Virus record (IMG/VR): IMGVR_UViG_3300014205_000174
From: a virus
Taxonomy: Duplodnaviria; Caudoviricetes
Length of the DNA: 64,000 nt
Direction: 5' to 3' (one strand)
The stretch's first letter is position 1. Each line of letters opens with the position of its first letter. A program made the translations under genes and the position numbers. Below, piece by piece: positions 16,304 through 64,000 of this stretch. The notes under the pieces are model-generated. The model saw only the letters and a list, made by a program, of their open reading frames with translations. It made no database searches and was not told where the DNA came from.

Positions 16304-17617
16304 ATGAACAAACCAATAACTGTAAAAAAAGTAAAGCGCATGCTTATCCTTGCCGACTGGCATGGAGCGTCCACTGGTTTCGGTACCGTAACCAACAACA
16401 TCCTTCCATATATCCAGGCTCATTACGGCAAAGACCTGCTTATTGTAATGGTTGCCATTAATTATTTTGGCGAGGAATATACGGTTGGCAATCTTACCGT
16501 GGTGTCGGCAAAGAATTACTTTGTCCCGGAGCCGCAAGCGGCGGGAGAGGGCCAGCCAATGAAAGTAATTGAGCCCGACCCATTTGGCCGACACTCCTTC
16601 CTGCGGATACTGGCAATAGATGAGGTTGGGTTCGACCTTTGCTTCATCATACAGGACTTGTCCATCGTAAGCGACCTTGCGGTTACTATGAAGGAAATGA
16701 AGAAATACAAACAGGCCCAGAATAAGCGCAACTTTAAGTCTTTGGTGTATATGCCGGTAGATGCAAAGTTGACAAAAGCGGAACTGTATAACATTGATTT
16801 CTTCGACACCATTGTCACATACAATGAATTCTCCCGTAATGAAATTGTCAGGAACAGGCCGGAACTGCTGAAGAAGGTAAAAAAGATACCGCACGGTAAT
16901 TCCAGCAAGGACTTCTTCCCCATGCCGGAGCAGGAGGTTGCGGAATTCAGAAAAGCATACTTTGGCGACAATGCCGACAAAATAATATTTGCCAACATTA
17001 ACCGCAACCAGCCGAGAAAGGCAATCGGTGAAACCATTCTTGCGTTCATTGAGGCAAAAAAAGAATGGGCTCTTGAGCGCCAGCCGTTCCTGTACCTGCA
17101 CATGATGGAGAAAGACCCGCTGATGTGGGGTTATGACTTAAAGAAAATATTTGCGCAGACCGACCTGGTAGAGAACGTAGATTATATGATTGCACCACAG
17201 GAATTCTTTACCAAGAGCAATGGAGCGCCAATAAGCTTACTACGTAGTATCTACAATGCTGTAGACATCTGCATCACCACTACTACGGGCGAAGGCTGGG
17301 GCTTATCGGTCACCGAGGCTTTTGCCTGTCGCAAGCCGGTAATACTCCCGCTGAATACTTCGCTCATTGAAATCAGCAACAATGGGCAAAGGGCTTATGG
17401 CATGACCAATATGGTTCCCTTCATCAATGAGTTTGACCATGTTATCCGGGAGCAGACGGACATATATGAATGCGCTGATACAATGAAGGGGGCGGCAAAA
17501 AACTTGCTTTCCGGAATAGACAAGCCGATTATAGATGCTGCACAGCGGTATGTCGGCACCCTTACCTGGAAGTCGGTGTCCGATAAATTTATTGCATATT
17601 TCGATGAGTTGTTTTAG
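16304..17617 (+). CDS. glycosyltransferase, GT-B fold (family 4-like)
   Basis: TGFGTV, IPHG, NRNQPRK, YNAVDI...GEGWGLSVTEAFAC (EX7E). Confidence 0.9.
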   Translation: MNKPITVKKVKRMLILADWHGASTGFGTVTNNILPYIQAHYGKDLLIVMVAINYFGEEYTVGNLTVVSAKNYFVPEPQAAGEGQPMKVIEPDPFGRHSFLRILAIDEVGFDLCFIIQDLSIVSDLAVTMKEMKKYKQAQNKRNFKSLVYMPVDAKLTKAELYNIDFFDTIVTYNEFSRNEIVRNRPELLKKVKKIPHGNSSKDFFPMPEQEVAEFRKAYFGDNADKIIFANINRNQPRKAIGETILAFIEAKKEWALERQPFLYLHMMEKDPLMWGYDLKKIFAQTDLVENVDYMIAPQEFFTKSNGAPISLLRSIYNAVDICITTTTGEGWGLSVTEAFACRKPVILPLNTSLIEISNNGQRAYGMTNMVPFINEFDHVIREQTDIYECADTMKGAAKNLLSGIDKPIIDAAQRYVGTLTWKSVSDKFIAYFDELF

Positions 17618-36636: not shown

Positions 36637-38901
36637 ATGCCTAACGAAAACGAAATCATACAGCAAGCAATAGACCAGGTAAGACGCGATATTCTTGCGA
36701 ACAAGGATTTTGTGCGCGGTATACTGAAGGATATTAAGCTCACAAAAGACAACATTGACCCCAATTTAATCTACGCGCTCATGACACAATTTGCTTCAAA
36801 TCAGCAGCCAAGAAGGCCGCAATCGAATGCGCCAAAAGAAATTGCAGACGGCGACAAGGCCGTAGCAAAGCCAATTGCCATTTCCGTGGACAGCCTTGAA
36901 TCAAAGGTTGTGGCGGACTTGCTGTCCGGTAATAACGTGTATTTATACGGCAAGGCCGGTAGCGGTAAGGCTCAGCCGTTGTATTCGAAGATAGCCACAC
37001 CCGATGGCTGGAAGGCCATGGGTGACTTGTCAAAAGGGGATACTGTTTATTCTTCTGACGGTAAGCCAACTAAGGTGACTGGCGTATTTGACAGGGGCGT
37101 GAGGGATATTTATCGCATTACCTTTTCTGATGGGTCGTATACTGATTGTTGCGACGAGCATTTATGGGCTGTGTATAATTATAATTACATGGCTGGTAAA
37201 GAAACAAAGGTGATGGCGCTGAGTGCTTTTAAGGATAATATTATTAAGAAGCACGGAGGTGGTAAGTATAGAATACCTATAAGCCAGGCTGTTCAATACA
37301 AGGCTAAGAAGCATGTAATACACCCATATGTATTGGGCGTAATATTGGGTGATGGCGGCATGACAAATGAGAATATTACTATCACCACGCCGGATACTTT
37401 TATTGTAAAAAAAGTATCCGCATTACTACCGGATACTTTGGAGCTGAGGCTGTTTAAGCAAGAAGAAGGCAAGTGCCCAACATACGGTATCCGGCTAAAA
37501 GATAAAAAGACTAAAATAAATGTTTATCGGCATGAATTAATAAGGCTGGGCCTGATGTATAAGAAGTCAATAGATAAATCAATACCGGCAGAATATCTGT
37601 TTGATTCTATTGAAAACAGGCAGCAATTATTACTGGGTCTTAATGATACGGATGGTTCTGCTAGCGTATCAATGGAGTTTAGCACTTCATCTGAGAAATT
37701 ATCACAGGATTACGTGGAGCTGATTCAGTCCCTTGGCGGTACATGCAGGGTGAAATCAAGGATACCGAAATTCAAAAACAGTAAAGGGGAAGTTGCTTAT
37801 GGCCATGTAAGCTTCCGGCTTTATCCAAAAGTGATGAATGAGCTGGAGCTGTTTTCGTTGCCGTCTAAAAAGAGTAAAGTTCCCAAGCGTACAAAGTATT
37901 TCCCGTCAAGGGTGATTTATAGTGTTGAATTTATAGGTAAGCTGCCAGCAAGATGTATATCTGTTGCGAATGAAAGTCATTTATATCTTACCGATAGCTA
38001 CATCGTAACGCATAATACCTACCTCGCCGAAGCCATAGCAACAACTATCATGGGCCAGAAGAAGTTCCTGATAAATTGTTCGCAATGGACGTCCCCTGTG
38101 CAGCTTATTGGCGGCCAGACCATTAAGGGCTACCAGGAAGGGGAATTGATTAAGGCGTGGGCTCAGGGTGGGATACTTATACTTGATGAGTTGCCCAAGC
38201 TTGACCCGAATACGGCCAGTCTGCTTAATGCTGCACTGGCAGAGACAGCCGCTCAGCCGAAATACGATGATGCGGGAAATGTAATACCCAGCACTATTCC
38301 TTCTATCACCAATGGTCGTGGTGATGTTATTTATAAGGGACAAGACCAGGCCGACCCGGCATTGAAATTCAGGTTTGGGGTAATTGGTACCGGTAACACG
38401 GATATGAAGACCGTGGGTAATAAATACGGCGGTAACCAAAAGCAGGACTATTCACTTGTGGACAGGTTTGCCGGCTCTTATTACCTGCTTGATTATTCAC
38501 GTGATACGGAGATGCGCCTCACCTACCCTTATGTGTACGGTGTATGTGCTGCCATACGTAAATTCCTTGACGCACGTGATTCCGTGGAAAGCATATCGCT
38601 TCGTACCATGCTCAACATGAACAGGACATATGAGCAGGAGATGCTGTATAAGCTGGAGAACAGCCCGTTTGCCGATGAGATTTTCGACAACAACGGGAAT
38701 GAAATCCCTCCAAAAACTATTGATAATTCCATCGATAGCTTTTTGTCTATGCTGGACAAGCAAAAGATGAATGACCTGCTCGACGATACCGACTTTAAGA
38801 ACGCGCGTAACAGCACGGATAATAATGTCGAGACATTCATCCGGCACTTTAAAGCCAAGTATCATCTTGACCCGATTACCGGAGAAAGAGTCAAGAAGTA
38901 G
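36637..38901 (+). CDS. MoxR/CobS-like AAA+ ATPase containing an intein
   Basis: NVYLYGKAGSGK^T Walker A split by the intein; GGILILDE Walker B; GTGNT sensor; DRF arginine finger. Confidence 0.9.
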   Translation: MPNENEIIQQAIDQVRRDILANKDFVRGILKDIKLTKDNIDPNLIYALMTQFASNQQPRRPQSNAPKEIADGDKAVAKPIAISVDSLESKVVADLLSGNNVYLYGKAGSGKAQPLYSKIATPDGWKAMGDLSKGDTVYSSDGKPTKVTGVFDRGVRDIYRITFSDGSYTDCCDEHLWAVYNYNYMAGKETKVMALSAFKDNIIKKHGGGKYRIPISQAVQYKAKKHVIHPYVLGVILGDGGMTNENITITTPDTFIVKKVSALLPDTLELRLFKQEEGKCPTYGIRLKDKKTKINVYRHELIRLGLMYKKSIDKSIPAEYLFDSIENRQQLLLGLNDTDGSASVSMEFSTSSEKLSQDYVELIQSLGGTCRVKSRIPKFKNSKGEVAYGHVSFRLYPKVMNELELFSLPSKKSKVPKRTKYFPSRVIYSVEFIGKLPARCISVANESHLYLTDSYIVTHNTYLAEAIATTIMGQKKFLINCSQWTSPVQLIGGQTIKGYQEGELIKAWAQGGILILDELPKLDPNTASLLNAALAETAAQPKYDDAGNVIPSTIPSITNGRGDVIYKGQDQADPALKFRFGVIGTGNTDMKTVGNKYGGNQKQDYSLVDRFAGSYYLLDYSRDTEMRLTYPYVYGVCAAIRKFLDARDSVESISLRTMLNMNRTYEQEMLYKLENSPFADEIFDNNGNEIPPKTIDNSIDSFLSMLDKQKMNDLLDDTDFKNARNSTDNNVETFIRHFKAKYHLDPITGERVKK
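36970..38016 (+). mobile_element. class 3 intein (349 aa) with LAGLIDADG endonuclease
   Basis: Starts AQPL (Ala1), ends VTHN/T; HLW in block B, RCISV in block F, Thr in block G; LGVILGDG and LLGLNDTDG. Confidence 0.9.
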
Positions 38902-54661: not shown

Positions 54662-56096
54662 AACCTAACTAAATGTATTTATCTTTACTCAAACAATTGT
54701 ATTTTTAATTCAAATAGATAAGATTCACAGAATGCCACTTTATAAGTCCAGAAAAATACGATTAGAGCCGAACAACAAGCAGCTTACGCTACTCCGTAAG
54801 CATGCAGGTTGTGCGCGGTATGCGTATAACTGGGCCATTGCAATAAGCGAGCGGATATACGAAGAATATAAAATAACCATCACAGCCATAGACCTAAACA
54901 AAATGTTTGTGAAGATGGAGAAGTCGCAGCATAACTGGCTGTATGAAGTCAGCAAGTGCGCTACACAGCAGGCCATACGCAACTACGAGACAGCGAGAAA
55001 GAACTTCCACAGGATACAGAAAGACAGTGGGTACACTAAGAAGCGTCTGCTAAATAAACGCTCCGAAGACGGAAAGAAAGTATACATCCTTGAGGGTCTG
55101 CCGCAGAAAAAGAAAAAAAACAAGAGCCGCGATAGTTTTTACCTTGAGAATGATGGCGTAAAACCAATACAAACAAAAAAGGGGTATATTAAACTGCCAA
55201 AGATAGGTTGGGTGAGAACGTCCGAGGATATTTCACCGGAAGTGTCATTCCTTAGCTGCACCATAAGTAGGCGTGCTGATGACTGGTACGTAAGCTACAA
55301 GTACGAGTTTGAGCCTACGGAGCACAGAAACATAAGAACTGTTGGCGTAGACCTTGGCATAAAGACACTAGCTACACTGAGCACCGGTATAACCTTTGAT
55401 ACCCCCAAAAGGTACAAAGAGCTTAATCGCAGACTGCGCCGCGAGCAGAAAAGCCTGTCTCGTAAGTATGAATCTTGGAAGCTGCACAAAAACGACCAGC
55501 GTCCACAGAGCCAAAATTACAAGAAGCAAAAAACCAAAATAGCAAAGTTGCATAAACGCATTGTAGACCATCGCTTAGATGGCCTGCATAAGCTCACTAC
55601 CCACCTCACCAAAAACCACAGTGAGATAGTTATTGAGGATTTGAATATAAAGGGCATGTTGAGCAACCACAATCTGGCCAGAAGTATTGCCAATGGGAGT
55701 TTCCGTGAGCTGCGCCGCCAGTTGAAATACAAAGGCGACTGGTATGGCTGTAGAATTACCGTAGCTAACAGGTTCTTCCCGAGCAGTAAGATGTGCAGTG
55801 TCTGCGAAGCAATCAACAAGACCCTTAAGTTAAAAGACCGGGAGTGGGACTGCGAGGGTTGCGGCACCCATCACGACCGTGATAATAATGCATGCCAGAC
55901 ACTGGAGCAGTACCCAACTATGCATGCATATAAATATTTGCCGGTTAGCCAAACCGGATATGCGGAGAGTTCCACCGTGAAAGCCTGTGGAGCCGGGAGT
56001 TCTGCGAGAGTTTCGCATAGCCTGGCTATTAGTACGAAGCAGGAAGTAAACACTAAAAACCCGCGTGAGTAGGTTTAGGTAAGTTTTACAGAACGG
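54662..56096 (+). mobile_element. tnpB-only IS607-like element
   Basis: Right end GTAGGTTTAGGTAAGTTTTACAGAACGG ends in the GG typical of IS607 ends; left end approximate. Confidence 0.6.
54732..56072 (+). CDS. tnpB: TnpB RNA-guided endonuclease, IS607-type, no tnpA
   Basis: KIRLEPNNKQ...HAGCARYAYNWA; RuvC GVDLG / VIEDL / HDRD; zinc ribbon. Confidence 0.95.
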   Translation: MPLYKSRKIRLEPNNKQLTLLRKHAGCARYAYNWAIAISERIYEEYKITITAIDLNKMFVKMEKSQHNWLYEVSKCATQQAIRNYETARKNFHRIQKDSGYTKKRLLNKRSEDGKKVYILEGLPQKKKKNKSRDSFYLENDGVKPIQTKKGYIKLPKIGWVRTSEDISPEVSFLSCTISRRADDWYVSYKYEFEPTEHRNIRTVGVDLGIKTLATLSTGITFDTPKRYKELNRRLRREQKSLSRKYESWKLHKNDQRPQSQNYKKQKTKIAKLHKRIVDHRLDGLHKLTTHLTKNHSEIVIEDLNIKGMLSNHNLARSIANGSFRELRRQLKYKGDWYGCRITVANRFFPSSKMCSVCEAINKTLKLKDREWDCEGCGTHHDRDNNACQTLEQYPTMHAYKYLPVSQTGYAESSTVKACGAGSSARVSHSLAISTKQEVNTKNPRE

Positions 56097-56271: not shown

Positions 56272-56460
56272 ATGCAACCAGAACTAATCGAAAAGATAAA
56301 AGACATAGACCTTAGTAAGGTAGGCAAAAAAGCAATACTTGTCGTTTCTGGGCTGCTCTTTGGCGCGATAGGCCTTGTGCTGCTGAATAAATTCGTAGAG
56401 GATAACTTTGATTTCCGAGTGGACAGAATTTCCAACAAGCCACCAAACGATAAGAAATAA
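56272..56460 (+). CDS. small single-TM protein
   Basis: AILVVSGLLFGAIGLVLL. Confidence 0.75.
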   Translation: MQPELIEKIKDIDLSKVGKKAILVVSGLLFGAIGLVLLNKFVEDNFDFRVDRISNKPPNDKK

Positions 56461-56502
56461 AACTTAGTTTTTAATTTTATAAACAAACCAAAAACAAACC
56501 AC

Positions 56503-57123
56503 ATGTACAAGTACGAACTAAAATTACAAGAAGTGGGCATGCAGGTTACAGACCTTAGTAAGGGCATGCAGGATAAGATAAAGAAATTCCTTAAGGGGGT
56601 TGCCGCCGCTGATAAGATGAGGGAAAGGCTGAAAGGAAATATTACCCAGGCGACCAGGGAAAGTATTGAAGCGGAGTTGGCTGATATGGACATTGATGCT
56701 GGCGATATGAAGCTGGTAAAGGGCATTGAAGACGGTATAAAAAATAAAGACAAGTACGATGCCCTTGCTGCTAATTTGCAGAAGAAAAGGCTAGAGAAAG
56801 GGATGTCTGGCTCAAAGCCGCCGGCAGCGACACCAATACCTATTCCGCCAGCAACAAATCCAGCACCACAACCAATACCTATTCCGCCAGCAACGAGTCC
56901 AGCACCACAACCAACGCCAGCCTCGGTTGCTCCGGCTCCCGTTGCTCAAGTACCAACCACGCCACCCGCCTCAACTCCTTCTCCTGCTCCGGCAGATAAA
57001 GGCAAGGAAGAAGAGGTAGCTAAAGATGGGAGTAGTAATGTCAGTGGCTGGGCCTTTGCAGGAATAGTGGTATTGTCGCTACTTGGGCTTGGGGCCTGGG
57101 CAAAAAAAACGGGCAGGATATAG
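56503..57123 (+). CDS. C-terminally anchored Pro-rich membrane protein
   Basis: Same architecture as 47399; GWAFAGIVVLSLLGLGAWAKK. Confidence 0.8.
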   Translation: MYKYELKLQEVGMQVTDLSKGMQDKIKKFLKGVAAADKMRERLKGNITQATRESIEAELADMDIDAGDMKLVKGIEDGIKNKDKYDALAANLQKKRLEKGMSGSKPPAATPIPIPPATNPAPQPIPIPPATSPAPQPTPASVAPAPVAQVPTTPPASTPSPAPADKGKEEEVAKDGSSNVSGWAFAGIVVLSLLGLGAWAKKTGRI

Positions 57124-57160
57124 GGCATTGTATTTTTTAAATCGTAAATTTGATTAAGCA

Positions 57161-57373
57161 ATGAGTTACTTGAAGTATAAAAAAGAAAAGCAGCAGAAAG
57201 AGAGTAAAAAACTCGCTACCGTCGGGTTTGTAGTAGGAGCTGCCTTGGCGCTCGATGATAGCGACAGTAATTACGAAGATGTTGTAGCTGGCGGTGTGGT
57301 CGGGGTTTTGGTAGTGGGACTATTCGAATACTTATTCCCGAAAGCAAGCAGTAAAATTGCGCAAATGATATAA
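57161..57373 (+). CDS. small membrane protein (glycine-zipper-like)
   Basis: GFVVGAALA...AGGVVGVLVVG. Confidence 0.7.
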   Translation: MSYLKYKKEKQQKESKKLATVGFVVGAALALDDSDSNYEDVVAGGVVGVLVVGLFEYLFPKASSKIAQMI

Positions 57374-57375
57374 AC

Positions 57376-57963
57376 ATGGCTAGTAAATACACAGAATCTC
57401 TGATAAGAACGTTTGTAAACCAGTACGGTGTGTCTATAGCAAGGGCTATAGCACAGACCAACTTGTTTTTTCCTGCGGTTGTAGCCCAACTATCTGTGGA
57501 AAGCGCAAATGGTACATCTGGTCTCTCTGTGCGTGCAAATAATTTCGGTGGGATTAAGGGCAACCAGGATAATGGTATACTTATGGATACCACTGAGACG
57601 GATAAGCATATTGCGTCAAGGGCCTATTTTAGGAAATATGCAAACTTCGATGAGTTTATAGACCATTACGTGAGTATTCTGCGAACACCAAGGTATATAA
57701 ATGGGGGAGTATTTGAAGCCACTTCCCCTGAAGACCAGATTAAGGCTATGGTTAAAGCTGGATACTCTACCATGACCCCGAACGCATATTTAAAGCAAGG
57801 AGTAAAAGACAGAATAGATGCAACCAGGGATATATATAAAATCGGAAAAATAGGCAACATATCATCCGCCTATGCTGCTCTAGGGTTCGCCCCGCAACAG
57901 GAGGCAAATCCCGGAGCTGCCGCAGTGCCGAACTTTTTGTGGGATAATATTTTGCGTTTGTAA
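57376..57963 (+). CDS. GH73 glucosaminidase/FlgJ-like peptidoglycan hydrolase
   Basis: AQLSVES, NNFGGIKG, FRKY, RY, AGYST. Confidence 0.9.
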   Translation: MASKYTESLIRTFVNQYGVSIARAIAQTNLFFPAVVAQLSVESANGTSGLSVRANNFGGIKGNQDNGILMDTTETDKHIASRAYFRKYANFDEFIDHYVSILRTPRYINGGVFEATSPEDQIKAMVKAGYSTMTPNAYLKQGVKDRIDATRDIYKIGKIGNISSAYAALGFAPQQEANPGAAAVPNFLWDNILRL

Positions 57964-57975
57964 AACTATCATCAA

Positions 57976-58152
57976 ATGAGCGACAACAGAACGAGGAATT
58001 TGCATATATTGTTATTTTGTGTAACTTTGGCTGGTGTAGGCACTGGTATTTACACTATTTATGAGTACCAGCGCGTTAAGAAAATAAATGAAACAGTGGT
58101 TACATTGCAGGATGCGGAGCAAATCATCAGGATGAACGCTGCTGCAAATTAA
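57976..58152 (+). CDS. small single-TM protein (58 aa, absent from ORF track)
   Basis: MSDNRTRNLHILLFCVTLAGVGTGIYTIYEYQRVKK... Confidence 0.65.
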   Translation: MSDNRTRNLHILLFCVTLAGVGTGIYTIYEYQRVKKINETVVTLQDAEQIIRMNAAAN

Positions 58153-58197
58153 GTTTACGACATTACAAAGCTTTATTCATTTTTAATTTCATAAACC

Positions 58198-58932
58198 ATG
58201 CAGACCCGGATAATCATAAATAATATAGAAAAAAATTTCCAGGATAATTTCAGGCCCAGGGTTCTTCGTGGGCGGAAAGACGCTTTTGTAAATTCGGGAG
58301 GCGGCCTTGAGGGCGCGCCTACTGGCGGTATGATTGGTACCGGAGGCCCAACCCCGCCAGCGCCGAAGCCAAAGTACGATAAGTACGCAGCAAGGGTAAT
58401 ACCAAAACCCGGAATCGAAAGCCTTCCGCCTGTAATAAATGCTACGCCAACAACTGTTTTACCACCACCACCACCTACGCCACCACCAGTAGTGCATCCT
58501 GCTGCCGGTACGATACTGGAGACTTATTGTGCCGGTACGAATAGAATGCGTGCATATGCGGATGGTCGTGGCGGAGCAACTACATCTGTATTGGAGACAA
58601 ACAGCACTAGTTGCGGGTATACTCCTGCGCCACCACCACCGCCGGATACAACGACAACTACTACAGTTGTAACCCAGCCTGCGCCTATACCGGATTACGG
58701 CAGTAGTGGGCCAGTTAGCGGTGGAAGTATAGGTGGTGGAGGCGGTGGCGGAAGTGAAGCGCCAATGTCTCCGGGTGGCGGTGCCGGTATGGGCATGCCG
58801 GAACCAGAGGCCCCTGTATTGCCGGAAAGCATTCTGAAAAAAGAAGTAATCAACTGGCCGTTAATTATAGGTGTAGTTGGTTGTTTTGGTGGAGTGTATT
58901 GGTACTTAGGCAGGAAGCAGGCAGCAGCGTAG
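58198..58932 (+). CDS. Pro/Gly-rich C-terminally anchored membrane protein
   Basis: WPLIIGVVGCFGGVYWYLGRK; PKYDKYA motif shared with the next gene. Confidence 0.8.
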   Translation: MQTRIIINNIEKNFQDNFRPRVLRGRKDAFVNSGGGLEGAPTGGMIGTGGPTPPAPKPKYDKYAARVIPKPGIESLPPVINATPTTVLPPPPPTPPPVVHPAAGTILETYCAGTNRMRAYADGRGGATTSVLETNSTSCGYTPAPPPPPDTTTTTTVVTQPAPIPDYGSSGPVSGGSIGGGGGGGSEAPMSPGGGAGMGMPEPEAPVLPESILKKEVINWPLIIGVVGCFGGVYWYLGRKQAAA

Positions 58933-58956
58933 TCACCAGCAAAATCAGAAACCGAA

Positions 58957-59436
58957 ATGCGAAAAATCATAAATGACATAGACGCTAAATTTAGCAATGC
59001 CAATGGAGGTAGTGCTAAGGTGTTATACAATGGAGGTGGTGCTCAGACATTAGCTCCATTGGAGCCGTCATTTATCGGGATAGGAAATGTTACGCCATCC
59101 CAAAGACCGAAGTATGATAAGTATGCACCAAGGGATGTTGGCAATCCCAATTCAATCGAGTCTGTAGTTCCGGGTATGGGTGGCCCTCCGCCTCCGTCAG
59201 ATAATCCGGTAGACAATGACATCGATACTGGCGACAATACTGGCGACAACTATCCTGGCGGCAATAACAACCAGGGAGACCCGGAATACAACAACAACGA
59301 CGTTATAACAAATAAGGATGTTAGTTCTTCGGTAGAAGAAAGCAAGGATAATAAGTCTCTGTTCATTTTTGCAGGGGTTGGCGTAGTTGGTTTATTGGCC
59401 GGCATATATTTTTACTTAAAAGGCAAAGAACAATGA
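58957..59436 (+). CDS. C-terminally anchored membrane protein, partial paralog of 58198
   Basis: IINDID.KF, PKYDKYAPR, IES; C-terminal TM. Confidence 0.8.
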   Translation: MRKIINDIDAKFSNANGGSAKVLYNGGGAQTLAPLEPSFIGIGNVTPSQRPKYDKYAPRDVGNPNSIESVVPGMGGPPPPSDNPVDNDIDTGDNTGDNYPGGNNNQGDPEYNNNDVITNKDVSSSVEESKDNKSLFIFAGVGVVGLLAGIYFYLKGKEQ

Positions 59437-59906
59437 ATGAACAACAAAAGAAATTAGCGGGACAAATTCTTCTTGGGCTTACTGTAGTTGGCGGTATATA
59501 CCTTTTATATCGCAACAACAGGAAGAATAAGGCAGCCGTCAGCAATACGGTTATGGATATGCCTCAGCCGCCTGTGATGCCGGTTGTGAATCCAATTAGC
59601 CAGGTAGAGAACACTACGCCTATAGATAACTTTGACGTGGTGAAAGATGTGGTGCCGCCAGTGCCAGATATCCCTATAGTGCCAGTTAATACTGTGGTGC
59701 CGCCAGTCACTACACCGGTTAAGCGCGAAGATGTGTTAATCGGTAATCTCATGAAGGCAATAAATATTCTACCAGGTGGTACTAATCTTGATAAAGCAAA
59801 AAGATTCCTTGACGCAAACGGCGTAGACATAAGTACGCTGGCGGATTCAACCGACCAGGGTATTGTTAATTTTGCAGTAGCTAATGGGTGGAACCCAGCG
59901 GCATAA
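59433..59906 (+). CDS. N-terminally anchored Pro/Val-rich protein
   Basis: ILLGLTVVGGIYLLYR. Confidence 0.75.
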   Translation: MNEQQKKLAGQILLGLTVVGGIYLLYRNNRKNKAAVSNTVMDMPQPPVMPVVNPISQVENTTPIDNFDVVKDVVPPVPDIPIVPVNTVVPPVTTPVKREDVLIGNLMKAINILPGGTNLDKAKRFLDANGVDISTLADSTDQGIVNFAVANGWNPAA

Positions 59907-59917
59907 ATACAGGAACA

Positions 59918-60298
59918 ATGGATAACATACAACTAGGAAATAATCCGGCTCCAGCGTTGGAAATGCCAAGTCCGGCATTAAGCGCGCCTATGGCCCCACC
60001 CGCACCAACCCCAACACCAGCTCCGGTATTGGCCCCAACTCCGCCAATGCCTATGCAGTCGCCTGCTATGGGAATTGGGGGTAGTGGGAAGTTTGATTGG
60101 CTGCGCGATATCAACTGGATGGAAACAATCATTTGCGGCTTAGCAGTTGGTGCGCTTAGCTATGTTATTGCCTACTACCGGTTTAAGCTGAAAGAGGATA
60201 AGCTCATTGGTGCAGATACACAGCGCCAGTTGGATAATCTTGGGTTGAGGCTAGGAAAGACCGAGTCCTCTTTGATACAGGCCGGCATTGCTGTTTAA
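59918..60298 (+). CDS. Pro-rich single-TM protein
   Basis: Likely ATG at 59918; TIICGLAVGALSYVIAYY. Confidence 0.75.
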   Translation: MDNIQLGNNPAPALEMPSPALSAPMAPPAPTPTPAPVLAPTPPMPMQSPAMGIGGSGKFDWLRDINWMETIICGLAVGALSYVIAYYRFKLKEDKLIGADTQRQLDNLGLRLGKTESSLIQAGIAV

Positions 60299-60327
60299 AT
60301 CATTAATCACACATAGTTTATAAAAGA

Positions 60328-60354
60328 CGAAAGCCCCCAAATTGGGGGCTTTCG
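60328..60354. terminator. hairpin / probable terminator
   Basis: CGAAAGCCCCCAA-A-TTGGGGGCTTTCG inverted repeat. Confidence 0.65.
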
Positions 60355-60508
60355 CTTACGTGGCAATAGTAAAGAAAAAAACAAACCGAAGTAAAGATAA
60401 TCAAAATAATTTATTTTTAAAATCAAGGCATTGCGTTTTTATTTTTCATATTCCTTTATTATCTTTGAAAATCTTTCCAAGTTAGTTTCAAAGCAAACCA
60501 ATTTAATT

Positions 60509-60952
60509 GTGGCAAATAGGCAACGCACTGACACACATAAGCTATTGCATGAGGTTACGCGAACGGTCGAGGAGATAGGAGCAAAGGAGACTTGTGATAT
60601 ACTCATTGAGGCAAGAGCAAAGAATAAGGCCATTGATTTTATGGACTTTGTTATTAAGGTGGTCTGTGAAAAATACAATGTTTCTCCCGACGATGTGATT
60701 AAAAGTCATAGTGCAGAAAACAAACGGGTTTCTGCACTGCGCTTTATTTGTTTTTATTGCTATAATCACGGCATTAAGGGATTGAAAATTAACCAGGAAG
60801 AAATTGGTAGTAAACTGAATCGGCGTCAACCACTGATTAATAGGTATTCTCAGGAAATGAAGGCGAAAAGGCTGGAGAAGAATACGCAACTGCAAAAGTA
60901 TTTTACATACTTCGATGTTCAGATAAAGTCATACGGTAAGAAAACTAAATAA
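60509..60952 (+). CDS. DnaA C-terminal (domain IV)-like HTH protein
   Basis: VIKVVCEKYNVSPDDVI...RVSALRFICFY...QEEIGSKLNR; GTG 60509 follows TATCTTTG (60460-60467). Confidence 0.65.
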   Translation: MANRQRTDTHKLLHEVTRTVEEIGAKETCDILIEARAKNKAIDFMDFVIKVVCEKYNVSPDDVIKSHSAENKRVSALRFICFYCYNHGIKGLKINQEEIGSKLNRRQPLINRYSQEMKAKRLEKNTQLQKYFTYFDVQIKSYGKKTK

Positions 60953-60983
60953 TTAAATCGTTTTATTTAAAATCACACACATC

Positions 60984-62099
60984 ATGCGTAGAGCAAGAAA
61001 CAACCAGGACGAATTTGAGAATGAAATAACAGAAGGTGGAGAAAGTAGCTCACAGGTTATAAATGCGGAATCTGTTGAGATAAAGGACGAAAAGAAAAGC
61101 GAGTCCATTGCACAAGAGCCATCTAATCCTTACATGACTGGTGTGCTCGATGAAAAGACGTATACGCAGGGCGCTCCCATAGACCCTAATTTGGCAAATA
61201 TGCCGATAGAGGAGCCTGTGTTTATTCCACCCCCTCCGCCTCCACCGGTATCGGAGCCGGCAGGGCCACCCCCTCCGCCAGTTAACCCGGCACTTAAAGA
61301 CCTGAATCCCAAGGATAAAAATGTTGCTGCAAAAAGAGCCGCTGAAATGGCTTTGCAGATGTATGAATACATTCATGAGCTCGGCAATAAGGCGATAACT
61401 ATCCCCGAGAGCAAATTAAATAAACTTCAGAAGCAGGCGCTGATAGATTTGGAGACGCCTATGATGTTTAATGGTCAGCAAATAACTATGAAGCAATTCA
61501 TAGAAGTTTTCAACCAGCAGGCCGAAGGTACGTTTAAGGTAAGCCAGAAGTTCAAGGATGAAGTGATGCCGCTTCTTATTGAGATATTTGAGAAGAAGGG
61601 TATTGGCATGACTACTGAGCAGCAGTTAATGTTCCTTGTTGGTAAAGACATTGCTGGCAAACTTTCCCTTGCATGGGTTGCTATTCAGCAGCGTAAGGAG
61701 ATGATTGAAGTAATGAAGGAGCAGACGGAAGCATTCAAGGCTCAGGCGGAACAGTATAAAGCATGGATGCATGCTCAGCAATCTACCCCGCCGCCACCAC
61801 CGCCACCACCACCTGCGGCGGAGCAGCCAGTCCCAGTTCCACCACCACCGCCACCACCTACTCCTAATTTCCCTGGTTCTTACCAGGATTCACAACCTGT
61901 TGTTCATTTTAATCAGGACGATGTAATGCTCCCTGACCCTGAAGAGCATCGTGGAGTGCCTGGGGAGTTGAATGCACAAGGGTTTGTTGAGAATATGATT
62001 AATCCCGGTAAGGCTAAAAGGAATACGGTTAAGCTGCCGGATAACTCAACTGTGCTAACTGGAAAATCAAGAGGTAAAAATAAATTAAAAGTAAAATAA
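60984..62099 (+). CDS. Pro-rich hypothetical protein upstream of the packaging ATPase
   Basis: 371 aa, poly-Pro tracts flanking a helical core. Confidence 0.8.
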   Translation: MRRARNNQDEFENEITEGGESSSQVINAESVEIKDEKKSESIAQEPSNPYMTGVLDEKTYTQGAPIDPNLANMPIEEPVFIPPPPPPPVSEPAGPPPPPVNPALKDLNPKDKNVAAKRAAEMALQMYEYIHELGNKAITIPESKLNKLQKQALIDLETPMMFNGQQITMKQFIEVFNQQAEGTFKVSQKFKDEVMPLLIEIFEKKGIGMTTEQQLMFLVGKDIAGKLSLAWVAIQQRKEMIEVMKEQTEAFKAQAEQYKAWMHAQQSTPPPPPPPPPAAEQPVPVPPPPPPPTPNFPGSYQDSQPVVHFNQDDVMLPDPEEHRGVPGELNAQGFVENMINPGKAKRNTVKLPDNSTVLTGKSRGKNKLKVK

Positions 62100-62101
62100 T
62101 C

Positions 62102-62989
62102 ATGCCTGGTACAAGGGATTGTTTAGTTACGTTAGTGGTTGGTAAAAAAAAGGTAGGTAAAACACACACTACAATTCAGATGCTTGATGATATCGTCCGT
62201 GGCGATATTGCCAATGGCATTAAGCCAAGGAAGGCGCTGATATTTGATGTGAACAATGAGTTTTCCGACTTTAAGTTTAAGGGCCAGCAGCGAGCTATAA
62301 AAGCGTTGTACATAAGGGATATCGCAAGGTTTAGCTCCAGCAATATTATCGAGATAAGGCGAATACGGCCCTACTTTGACGATGGAAGCCGCATGTCTAC
62401 TGAGGATATGTCGAAGGTGCTGGCCATCATTATGGATAATTACCGGCGCGGGGTGCTACTCGTAGAGGATATAAATAAATATGTTACCGACTCAATCAAT
62501 GGAGATTTGATAGGCAACCTCGCCACTGCTCGACATATAGGATTAGATGTTATATGCCACTATCAGCAGATTTCTCGTGCCGGAAATCCTAAATTATTCG
62601 GTAACGCTAACTTTATTCGTTTTCATAAAACCAATGATACGGTAGCGCGTCATGAACTGAAGTTCCAGGAGAAGACGGAGCTGTTGCAGTTGGCCGAGAA
62701 TATAGTTAACTACTACTATAACGTCAAGGGGTATGAGGAAGACGAAAAGTATAAGTACTTCTTTCTTTGGGTTGATGTAGATGAATCTAAAATAAAGGCT
62801 GGCAATTTCAAAATAACGGACGAGGATATTGAGCGTAGCATTAATGAATATGTATCAGGCAATACCACCAGGCTATTAAAGCCACTCATGCAGCGTCTGG
62901 ATTTAACAACAAACAAGAAAGTGTTTGCTTCAGAGTCAGAAGGTATCCGGTATATTATTAAGCAACTCAAGAGAACATACTTTGAATAA
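62102..62989 (+). CDS. FtsK/HerA-superfamily (A32/P9-like) genome-packaging ATPase
   Basis: Walker A GKKKVGKT, LIFD, Walker B VLLVED, ARH arginine-finger motif, hhhHYQ sensor. Confidence 0.75.
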   Translation: MPGTRDCLVTLVVGKKKVGKTHTTIQMLDDIVRGDIANGIKPRKALIFDVNNEFSDFKFKGQQRAIKALYIRDIARFSSSNIIEIRRIRPYFDDGSRMSTEDMSKVLAIIMDNYRRGVLLVEDINKYVTDSINGDLIGNLATARHIGLDVICHYQQISRAGNPKLFGNANFIRFHKTNDTVARHELKFQEKTELLQLAENIVNYYYNVKGYEEDEKYKYFFLWVDVDESKIKAGNFKITDEDIERSINEYVSGNTTRLLKPLMQRLDLTTNKKVFASESEGIRYIIKQLKRTYFE

Positions 62990-63008
62990 TAGTAAGCACT
63001 AAGAAACC

Positions 63009-63200
63009 ATGCAAAAAATACTCTCCGACTCTACGCTGAAAAGATACATCCGCGAAGACAGCAAACTTTCCGACCTACAAAAGACCGCACTCCAGCGCCA
63101 TAACCACGAAGCACCCGAGTCGTTCGATGCTTGGTTCTACAATATTCTGGATGACGATGAGCGCGAGGACGTTCGCGAGTTCTTGAATATCAAACACTAA
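63009..63200 (+). CDS. hypothetical protein
   Basis: 63 aa. Confidence 0.6.
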   Translation: MQKILSDSTLKRYIREDSKLSDLQKTALQRHNHEAPESFDAWFYNILDDDEREDVREFLNIKH

Positions 63201-63284
63201 AAAAGTATTCAAATAATTTTGTTATTCTGGAAACTATATTTACATTTATGCTTTATATATTTTTCAACTAAAATTTTAATTACA

Positions 63285-63476
63285 ATGCAAGAGGGCACAG
63301 TTAAGTTTTTTAATGACTCCAAAGGATTTGGATTCATTACGCCATCCACAGGTGGCAAAGATATTTTCGTTCATGTATCCGGCACAAAGGATGAAATCCG
63401 GGAGAACGACAGGGTATCCTACGAAGTAGAAAATGGTAAGAAGGGCTTAAATGCCATAAACGTAAGAGTAATCTAG
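63285..63476 (+). CDS. cspA: cold-shock domain protein
   Basis: MQEGTVKFFNDSKGFGFI...DIFVHVS (RNP1/RNP2); start moved to ATG 63285. Confidence 0.95.
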   Translation: MQEGTVKFFNDSKGFGFITPSTGGKDIFVHVSGTKDEIRENDRVSYEVENGKKGLNAINVRVI

Positions 63477-63500
63477 CGCACACACACCACTTTCATTCAG

Positions 63501-63530
63501 AAAAAACCACGCCACCAGCGTGGTTTTTTT
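63501..63530 (+). terminator. intrinsic terminator
   Basis: AAAAAACCACGC-CACCA-GCGTGGTTTTTTT. Confidence 0.85.
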
Positions 63531-63846
63531 ATTTTTAAATATTCCCACAATCTTCATGTCGCTGAAATCCGCTCTACAAGCCACACACAGGCTATTCCAC
63601 TTTGATAATTATTGTTAATAAAAGGTAAGTGTATTTATAAAAAAAGTACAATATTGATAGTATTTCAATAACAGCAAATTACGTAAAAATTAGATTTGTT
63701 TACTATTGTTTGTAGATTTGTTTTCCGAAAGGCTATTTGCATAGCTGATTAAACAAAAAGCATACCAGTACTAATATTCGCTATTTGTATAGCAAAACAA
63801 TAAATCATTTTTAACTCATTAATCAAACAACTTAAAACTAACTTTT

Positions 63847-63975
63847 ATGATGGAGCAAGTTAAGAAACACCTCGGTTTAGGCATTACAGTTGTTGTTGCG
63901 GTATTGGTAACAACTAATCTGATTCAGCCAATGATTAACAAAGCGAAAATAAGTTCTCCTTCAGTTTCCCAGTAA
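63847..63975 (+). CDS. small single-TM protein (42 aa), likely first gene of the next operon
   Basis: MMEQVKKHLGLGITVVVAVLVTTNLIQP... Confidence 0.55.
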   Translation: MMEQVKKHLGLGITVVVAVLVTTNLIQPMINKAKISSPSVSQ

Positions 63976-64000
63976 TTCTGGTCTGATGAGTTCAAGGCAT

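Follow-up and report, generated by a model that had tools for sequence, protein, structure and literature searches.

A probable virion-assembly gene block in a 211-kb viral contig suggests an undescribed lineage of large, probably tailless viruses of Bacteroidota

The DNA considered here, hereafter the window, is a stretch of 64,000 nucleotides (nt) read from a viral contig of 211,455 bp, and the block of genes at positions 56272-63975 is probably the upstream half of a virion-assembly module. Fifteen + strand open reading frames (ORFs) were found in this block, among them genes for a small ATPase belonging to the FtsK-HerA superfamily, a GH73 cell-wall hydrolase and ten small membrane proteins, and the module recurs in related genomes and proviruses that also encode a candidate coat protein of jelly-roll type, termed F2. 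The window is coding on the + strand over nearly all of its length, with a GC skew that rises steadily throughout. Pfam and PHROG scans covered 57 window ORFs, restricted outside 56272-63975 to those of at least about 85 amino acids (aa), and the families considered from the pooled PHROG scan of the window are the best 25 of 36. An interpretation made earlier from the letters alone (the sequence-only reading) had taken the block for the structural genes of a giant tailless, membrane-containing virus of the PRD1/PM2 lineage.

The ATPase bears a Walker A motif, GKKKVGKT (residues 14-21), and a Walker B motif, LLVED (residues 119-123), and both are invariant in an alignment of 30 homologues, together with R144-H145 and Q155, which bears out the A32/FtsK-like motifs named in the sequence-only reading. 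The enzyme has no match in Pfam or PHROG, a sequence-profile search of the PDB returned nothing meaningful, tblastn against phage and plasmid collections found no match, and in hhalign comparisons with P9 and ORF13 the alignment was confined to the P-loop. The AlphaFold2 model (predicted local distance difference test, pLDDT, 88.9) shows an extra C-terminal helical domain at residues 240-295. In a Foldseek search of the PDB, the packaging NTPase B204 of Sulfolobus turreted icosahedral virus 2 (STIV2) fills ranks 1-10 (E 5e-8), with Zot at rank 13, and among the viral models of BFVD the best match is a Corticoviridae NTPase (5e-8), followed by A32-like ATPases of giant viruses and the PH1 ATPase. 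An all-against-representatives structural alignment (VIA), independent of Foldseek, also places B204 first (Z 16.9; root-mean-square deviation, rmsd, 2.8; 188/204 residues; 20% identity), followed by HerA (Z 15.4), DndH (Z 15.2), VirB4 (Z 14.7), Zot (Z 10.8) and FtsK (Z 10.7). A grouping with VirB4 or Zot would have told against the sequence-only reading, and both score below B204. On the strength of the model, the enzyme is a small, single-domain protein of the FtsK-HerA superfamily whose closest counterparts, by a modest margin over cellular HerA and VirB4, are the packaging enzymes known from tailless membrane viruses; the A32/FtsK-HerA type of packaging ATPase is common to Bamfordvirae and Helvetiavirae, and is recognised here by fold only.

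Homologues of the ATPase number 241 in metagenomes; the contigs that carry them are mostly no longer than about 70 kb, and some measure 174 and 272 kb. Five IMG/VR records were read whole (G001-G005), along with three loci, namely L004, a JGI locus on a 174-kb contig whose ATPase is 76% identical, L003, a locus from an NCBI metagenome-assembled genome (MAG), and L001, a locus on a 72-kb JGI contig. G001, a genome of 74,101 bp, is bounded by exact inverted terminal repeats (ITRs) of 653 bp, and its collinearity with the window extends over about 47 kb, from a glycosyltransferase at 16304 through the ATPase, while G005, at 102 kb, is rated complete by CheckV. Clustering by BLAST and searches with hidden Markov models (HMMs) reveal a shared gene order that begins with the membrane proteins F18 and F13 and continues with F11, F1, the ATPase, a tiny membrane protein and F2; these are followed by the membrane proteins F4, F29, F8, F16 and F7, by F3, by further membrane proteins, by F6 and F5, and by long fibres. 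On the sister contig of the 174-kb relative, a peptidoglycan-binding protein and an M15 peptidase come after the fibres. The conserved gene string also comprises β-sandwich proteins and lysis enzymes. Single-helix proteins around the ATPase number in the dozens in G001 and G005. The single-copy F3 (about 261 aa), of which the present contig encodes a copy (P0123), was considered as the coat and dropped, its invariant HExxH...E motif being that of a Zn-metalloprotease; a sequence-profile search of the PDB with F3 gave nothing meaningful.

F2 is the first sizeable gene 3' of the ATPase in viral contigs, within about 1-3 kb of it, and lies about 8-11 kb away in chromosomal proviruses; the farthest case is a Crocinitomicaceae MAG contig, G009, at a distance of at least about 17 kb, past locus L034. 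Wherever enough flanking DNA was read, F2 was found near the ATPase, in most cases at about 1-9 kb, and the family comprises 360 clusters at 50% identity in a library of 1.8 billion proteins. Its AlphaFold2 model begins with a short N-terminal helix, from which a disordered linker leads to a β-sandwich core with pLDDT mostly above 90. Viral jelly-rolls dominate the fold matches, which include the coat of grapevine fanleaf virus (GFLV; Z 6.7, rmsd 3.7, 111 aligned), PR772 chain O (Z 5.9), cowpea mosaic virus (CPMV; Z 5.8), the major capsid proteins of PBCV-1 and FLiP (Z 5.4), phiCjT23 (Z 5.2), PM2 P1 (Z 5.1), and picornavirus VP3 and satellite tobacco mosaic virus (STMV; Z about 5). As every one of these values is below 8, they show the type of fold and not kinship. 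Comparison of F2 by hhalign with VP15, VP16, VP17 and VP11 of P23-77 and with P3, P31 and P5 of PRD1 gave probabilities below 1% (0.1% for PRD1 P3), and searches of the ESM Atlas by shape and by features returned no usable match. Three copies of the F2 core model as an oligomer with a score of 0.67, against 0.00 for the best control, a partner pLDDT of at least 66 and agreement between runs in at least 0% of contacts; of proteins solved as pairs of one chain, 20 of 30 attained the mark set for this score, against 1 of 23 among those solved as single chains, counts that apply only roughly to F2, for which a custom alignment and three copies were used. Taken together, the type of fold, the position, the ubiquity and the modelled self-association of F2 point to it as the putative coat protein.

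The F2 gene of the present contig should begin near 64,040, just past the window, as judged by synteny: the last gene of the block, encoding 42 aa, is orthologous to a 41-aa gene of L004 that ends 64 nt 5' of F2. The sequence-only reading had suggested a capsid gene possibly just beyond position 64000 and proposed a search of the flanking ORFs for a jelly-roll fold. When this was carried out on the F2 proteins of the relatives, it returned the viral jelly-roll type at Z 5-7; a jelly-roll gene is thus predicted at that location, with a single barrel in place of the double jelly-roll that PRD1/PM2-like coats would call for. In most genomes F2 has one barrel only, and most also encode extra short paralogues; F2 paralogues number 2-5 in G001, G002, G003 and G005 (five in G005). 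A 397-aa protein of G005 (L018:17225-18418) carries two tandem F2 jelly-roll domains, and two-stretch F2 proteins of 245-411 aa account for 7 of the 150 listed representatives; such two-domain forms may represent a fusion from single to double jelly-roll.

The genes of the block are collected in Table 1. About ten small membrane-anchored and often proline-rich proteins had been claimed for it, and ten were indeed found: nine ORFs each encode one hydrophobic helix with a mean Kyte-Doolittle (KD) hydropathy of 1.65-2.38, while the tenth, at 58198-58932, has a weaker C-terminal helix of about 1.4 and was counted by hand. Proline makes up 9-16% of six of the ten.

Table 1. Genes of the block at 56272-63975, with the position of the membrane helix (TM, transmembrane; res, residue) and the nearest evidence
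Feature	Coordinates	Strand	Evidence
62-aa protein, one central membrane helix	56272-56460	+	KD 2.38 helix at res 21; 55% identical L004 orthologue in the same place
206-aa F18, 12% proline linker, C-terminal membrane anchor	56503-57123	+	TM res 180; homologues in G001, L001, L004
70-aa holin-like membrane protein	57161-57373	+	TM res 41; weak Phage_holin_5_1, E 0.036; directly 5' of GH73; kept with GH73 in L004, L003
GH73 N-acetylglucosaminidase	57376-57963	+	Pfam Glucosaminidase 6.4e-16; endolysin PHROGs down to 2e-19
58-aa protein, N-terminal membrane helix, 3' of GH73	57976-58152	+	TM res 11; orthologues in L004, L003
244-aa protein, 16% proline, C-terminal hydrophobic anchor	58198-58932	+	Paralogue of 58957-59436; 34% identical to L004 5790-6545
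159-aa paralogue of 58198-58932, C-terminal membrane anchor	58957-59436	+	TM res 134; 9% proline
157-aa proline-rich protein, N-terminal membrane anchor	59433-59906	+	TM res 8; 10% proline; 44% identical to L004 6581-7060
136-aa F13, proline-rich N-terminus, membrane helix	59888-60298	+	TM res 77; conserved in G001, G003, L001, L004
173-aa soluble F11	60431-60952	+	Conserved just upstream of F1 and ATPase in G001, L001, L003, L004
371-aa F1, helical core between proline-rich arms	60984-62099	+	Directly upstream of ATPase in 9/9 genomes/loci compared and in chromosomal proviruses
295-aa FtsK-HerA-superfamily ATPase, small A32/B204 type, putative packaging motor	62102-62989	+	AlphaFold2, Foldseek, structural alignment
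63-aa conserved small protein 3' of ATPase	63009-63200	+	58% identical to L004 10918-11118
Cold-shock protein gene	63219-63476	+	Between 63-aa gene and 42-aa membrane gene
42-aa membrane protein	63847-63975	+	Near-identical orthologue L004 11475-11600 (41 aa), ending 64 nt before F2

The embedded GH73 hydrolase is equally secure, its Glucosaminidase match scoring 59.6 bits against a curated cut-off of 30.2, and the product is a putative endolysin or virion-borne wall enzyme. The tandem paralogues at 58198-58932 and 58957-59436 are alike in their N-terminal region and in a P[KR]YDKYA motif, after which come the proline-rich linker and the C-terminal anchor. F1 has no match in Pfam or PHROG. F11 is possibly a DnaA-C-like DNA-binding protein, since the gene at its position in a Fluviicola provirus has a weak match to Bac_DnaA_C (E 0.0013), the two being linked by position alone. 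The cold-shock gene is the sole plausible source of the cold-shock match (3.6e-15) in the pooled PHROG scan, and L004 has no such gene at the corresponding place.

Chromosomal homologues of the ATPase, 31-36% identical save one at 52%, were found in the assembly of the cultured Fluviicola chungangensis MAH-3, in a record labelled Glaciecola amylolytica THG-3.7 and in Parvicellaceae and Crocinitomicaceae MAGs, with F2 and F3 HMM matches in the same neighbourhood, about 8-23 kb from the ATPase. Further homologues lie on MAG contigs labelled Flavobacteriales and Crocinitomix, and a few on contigs labelled Chlamydiales, Saccharibacteria and Pacearchaeota, labels that are likely binning artefacts. 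The provirus of Fluviicola chungangensis MAH-3, about 21 kb in size, lies on contig NZ_VLPL01000008 at around 128-149 kb. The provirus of CP034120 (G007, L038) spans about 21 kb (891,954-913,152), a small form about the size of the classical tailless phages, and encodes a large serine recombinase, a patatin-like phospholipase, eleven small membrane proteins, F3, F29, F2, F1 and the ATPase, along with AbiC-like and PLD-like cargo genes. It has no structural protein longer than 264 aa and therefore no room for a head-tail apparatus. In all the chromosomal copies (L037 6260-10846, L038, L031 and L034), one co-oriented string is made up of a large protein of about 580-830 aa, proteins of about 110 and 160 aa, F1 and the ATPase. 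DUF6908 in the large protein and a weak DnaA-C-like match in the protein of about 160 aa were seen in the Fluviicola copy, L037, only; in CP034120 the orthologue of the large protein has 648 aa, and the protein with the DnaA-C-like match has an orthologue there too. Although CP034120 is titled with the gammaproteobacterial name Glaciecola amylolytica, its provirus and flanks are gene-for-gene collinear with Fluviicola chungangensis, and its organism label may deserve a check. The integration of relatives in Flavobacteriales chromosomes supports Bacteroidota as the hosts of the lineage, in keeping with the host that the sequence-only reading had named.

That reading had also noted a lack of terminase, portal and tail genes in the 64 kb, and the scans of the 57 window ORFs contain none that is real. 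Pfam models for Terminase_6N (PF03237), TerL_ATPase (PF03354), Phage_portal (PF04860) and Phage_capsid (PF05065) found nothing in G001-G005, the same models being positive in 3 to 5 of 14 known genomes used as controls. Pfam and PHROG scans of the 79 proteins of G001, 20 of them also searched one by one, returned RecT, RusA-like nucleases, sugar and sulfate enzymes, endolysins, homing endonucleases and one endosialidase-chaperone fibre; head, portal and tail-tube proteins were absent from the best 25 matches and from those of the 20 single searches, and a protein-primed polymerase was absent from the best 25 of each scan. Likewise, the 174-kb relative and its sister contig have no structural Pfam match in the roughly 35 kb that lie downstream of the ATPase.

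Three PHROG matches to "terminase large subunit" at 36637-38901, with counterparts in G001, were rejected. They cover residues 92-467 of an AAA_5 (MoxR/CobS-like) ATPase, a stretch that is an intein of about 370 aa bearing a LAGLIDADG/Hom_end endonuclease. The intein sits in the P-loop (GKAGSGK|AQPLY...THN|TYLAE), from about residue 112, a start placed by eye with no conserved Cys, Ser or Thr at position 1, to an HN|T junction at about 480, and DnaC, primase and helicase PHROGs match the same residues. The intein-free homologues of G004 and G005 (470 aa) have no terminase match, while the G001 homologue has the intein.

Upstream of the block, a run of genes for giant proteins extends over 19782-54661. 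Among the products are a 1489-aa protein that combines Topo IB and ART-PolyVal with a polyA-polymerase head and an HD domain, a Strawberry-notch-like helicase of 1555 aa, a protein that contains LPD23 and one of 2271 aa with internal repeats. G001 and G005 likewise encode giant proteins ahead of the block, and such proteins may therefore be virion cargo, for which the conserved Zn-protease F3 could be the putative processor. Between the 2271-aa protein and the first membrane-protein gene lies a TnpB/IS605 OrfB gene (54732-56072; OrfB_IS605 1e-25, Cas12f1-like TNB), and as L004 has no gene at this site, TnpB is a recent insertion.

The reading favoured here, with rather more confidence than doubt, is that the 211-kb contig belongs to a very large member of an undescribed lineage of tailless double-stranded DNA viruses of Bacteroidota, probably with an internal membrane. 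The lineage appears undescribed in that tblastn of the ATPase found no close relative among cultured phage records, and literature searches found no description of it. It is the gene content that points to a lipid membrane in the virion, namely the ten small membrane proteins here, the dozens in G001 and G005 and the patatin-like phospholipase of the provirus. By analogy with the P9-P20-P3 order of PRD1 and the ATPase-VP15-VP16/17 order of P23-77, F2 would enclose, as an outer shell, a lipid vesicle in which the small proline-rich membrane proteins are embedded, and the ATPase, F1 and small membrane proteins might sit at one vertex, where a linear genome would be pumped into the preformed particle. 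GH73 and its holin-like neighbour would open the cell wall at exit or entry, and the giant multi-enzyme proteins encoded upstream could be delivered as cargo with the DNA.

Several points weigh against this reading. No virion has been seen, and about 147 kb of the contig, including the expected F2 gene, lies outside the sequence read. The low Z values of F2 may reflect nothing more than a common β-sandwich, its best rows in BFVD are C1q/TNF-like fibre heads, with SPV1 VP4 also present, and neither PDB sequence profiles nor hhalign gave a sequence signal to any capsid protein. B204 leads HerA and VirB4 by only about 1.5-2 Z, the long fibres of the relatives carry an endosialidase-chaperone domain and the PHROG label of tail fibre, and the HMM negatives leave room for very divergent TerL, portal and HK97 proteins.

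Some of these points would suit a particle of another undescribed type, for example an enveloped or pleomorphic one, or one built from an unrecognised shell protein, in which F2 would serve as a trimeric spike or receptor-binding head. The BFVD rows of F2 match the heads of collagen-like fibre proteins in particular, its trimer model is as compatible with a TNF-like head as with a capsomer, no fold match reaches a Z of 8, and several paralogues in one genome are often found for receptor-binding proteins. Nevertheless, F2 lacks a stalk of collagen or coiled-coil type, having just a short helix and a linker that is disordered, and its gene lies right after the ATPase, like the coat genes of PRD1 and P23-77, and far from the fibre genes. 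In the 21-kb provirus, moreover, F2 is the sole soluble protein of the structural block known to have a capsid-type fold, F2 alone having been folded, and we consider this alternative unlikely.

A tailed jumbo phage is a poorer fit, and an improbable one. Its terminase, portal, HK97 capsid and tail genes would all have to lie in the remaining 147 kb, with the ATPase and membrane block as an accessory or captured tailless element, and although the 211-kb genome, the giant polyvalent proteins and the fibres labelled as tail fibres are traits reminiscent of such phages, 47 kb of the window are collinear with the 74-kb, ITR-ended G001, which has no match to a tailed-phage hallmark. The block is furthermore no island, as the single + strand direction and the steady GC skew continue through the whole window, and structural Pfam matches are missing, as noted above, from the roughly 35 kb that follow the ATPase in the 174-kb contig and its sister. 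That the element is no virus, but a large mobile element moving DNA in a conjugation-like or vesicle-mediated manner with a VirB4/HerA-type translocase, is more improbable still: VirB4 and HerA do score not far under B204, the block holds many membrane proteins, and polyvalent proteins, reportedly typical of conjugative elements too, are present, but the ATPase is small and single-domain like B204, Pfam scans show no VirB4, TraG, relaxase or type IV secretion system families on the ATPase, its neighbours or the window or among the best 25 matches of G001, the module has a jelly-roll protein, chaperone-domain fibres, endolysins and a holin-like gene, and one genome, G001, has ITR ends.

There is about an even chance that a lineage of tailless, internal-membrane Bacteroidota phages with a single jelly-roll coat grew from proviruses of about 21 kb, through linear genomes of 74-102 kb, to jumbo genomes of 174-272 kb with giant cargo proteins, in parallel with the giant eukaryotic viruses that arose from small tailless ancestors; the tandem coat domain of some members would then record a possible transition from single to double jelly-roll. 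We know of no jumbo phage that is not tailed. The lineage, if real, would exceed the described bacterial viruses of tailless membrane build more than tenfold in size and would show that large size in a bacterial virus does not need the head-tail design. It would offer a graded series of 21, 74, 102 and 174-272 kb for the study of genome growth, and would enlarge the known viruses by a common aquatic group, poorly recognised by PHROGs and Pfam in the searches made here. Because one relative is a provirus in the cultured Fluviicola chungangensis MAH-3, the central claims are open to experiment.

Among known systems, the order of ATPase, tiny membrane protein and F2 in the relatives matches that of PRD1, in which the P9 ATPase is followed by gpi, P20 and the P3 coat, and that of P23-77, in which the ATPase is followed by ORF14, VP15 and the VP16/VP17 coats. 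The tailed jumbo phages of Caudoviricetes have a similar genome size, homing endonucleases, inteins and polyvalent proteins, whereas their TerL, portal, HK97 capsid and tail tube or sheath were undetected in the window and in the relatives read whole. STIV2 (Turriviridae) provides, in B204, the best structural match of the ATPase, but is archaeal and has a double jelly-roll coat, and the enzyme described here has the C-terminal helical domain in addition.

The Tectiviridae and Corticoviridae (PRD1 and PM2; Bamfordvirae) are alike in their roughly ten small membrane proteins, virion-type wall hydrolases and, for PRD1, ITRs; the ATPase finds its best BFVD match in a Corticoviridae NTPase, and the jelly-rolls of PR772 chain O and PM2 P1 are among the matches of F2. 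The proposal of a giant member of this lineage holds as to its tailless-type ATPase, its membrane proteins and the lack of tailed-phage genes in complete relatives; it is not supported as to the coat, as no double jelly-roll was found in the window, F2 is mostly a single barrel in the relatives, and its fold matches at Z 5-7 come with no sequence similarity to the capsid proteins of PRD1 or P23-77. The contrast in size that had been pointed out is real, prokaryotic double jelly-roll viruses having genomes of roughly 7-18 kb (PMC5894146) against 211 kb here.

The Halopanivirales (Helvetiavirae; the Thermus phage P23-77/IN93 and the haloarchaeal SH1, PH1 and HHIV-2) likewise combine a small FtsK-HerA ATPase with small proteins, one or more single jelly-roll coat genes and many small structural or membrane proteins. 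Most of the relatives of the present contig encode at least two jelly-roll paralogues each, and the PH1 ATPase is among the best BFVD matches. Some Halopanivirales have linear, ITR-ended genomes (PMC12643093), as does G001, and sphaerolipoviruses measure about 30 kb (PMC12643093). Unlike the present lineage, their genomes measure 16-31 kb, against 21-272 kb here; hhalign gives less than 1% to VP16/VP17 and about 50% for the ATPase, over the P-loop only; and the Bacteroidota host, giant polyvalent proteins, Zn-protease and long fibres are peculiar to the lineage described here. With its single-barrel coat candidate, its paralogues and an ITR-ended genome, this lineage resembles the Halopanivirales more closely than PRD1 or PM2, a likeness that falls short of membership in either.

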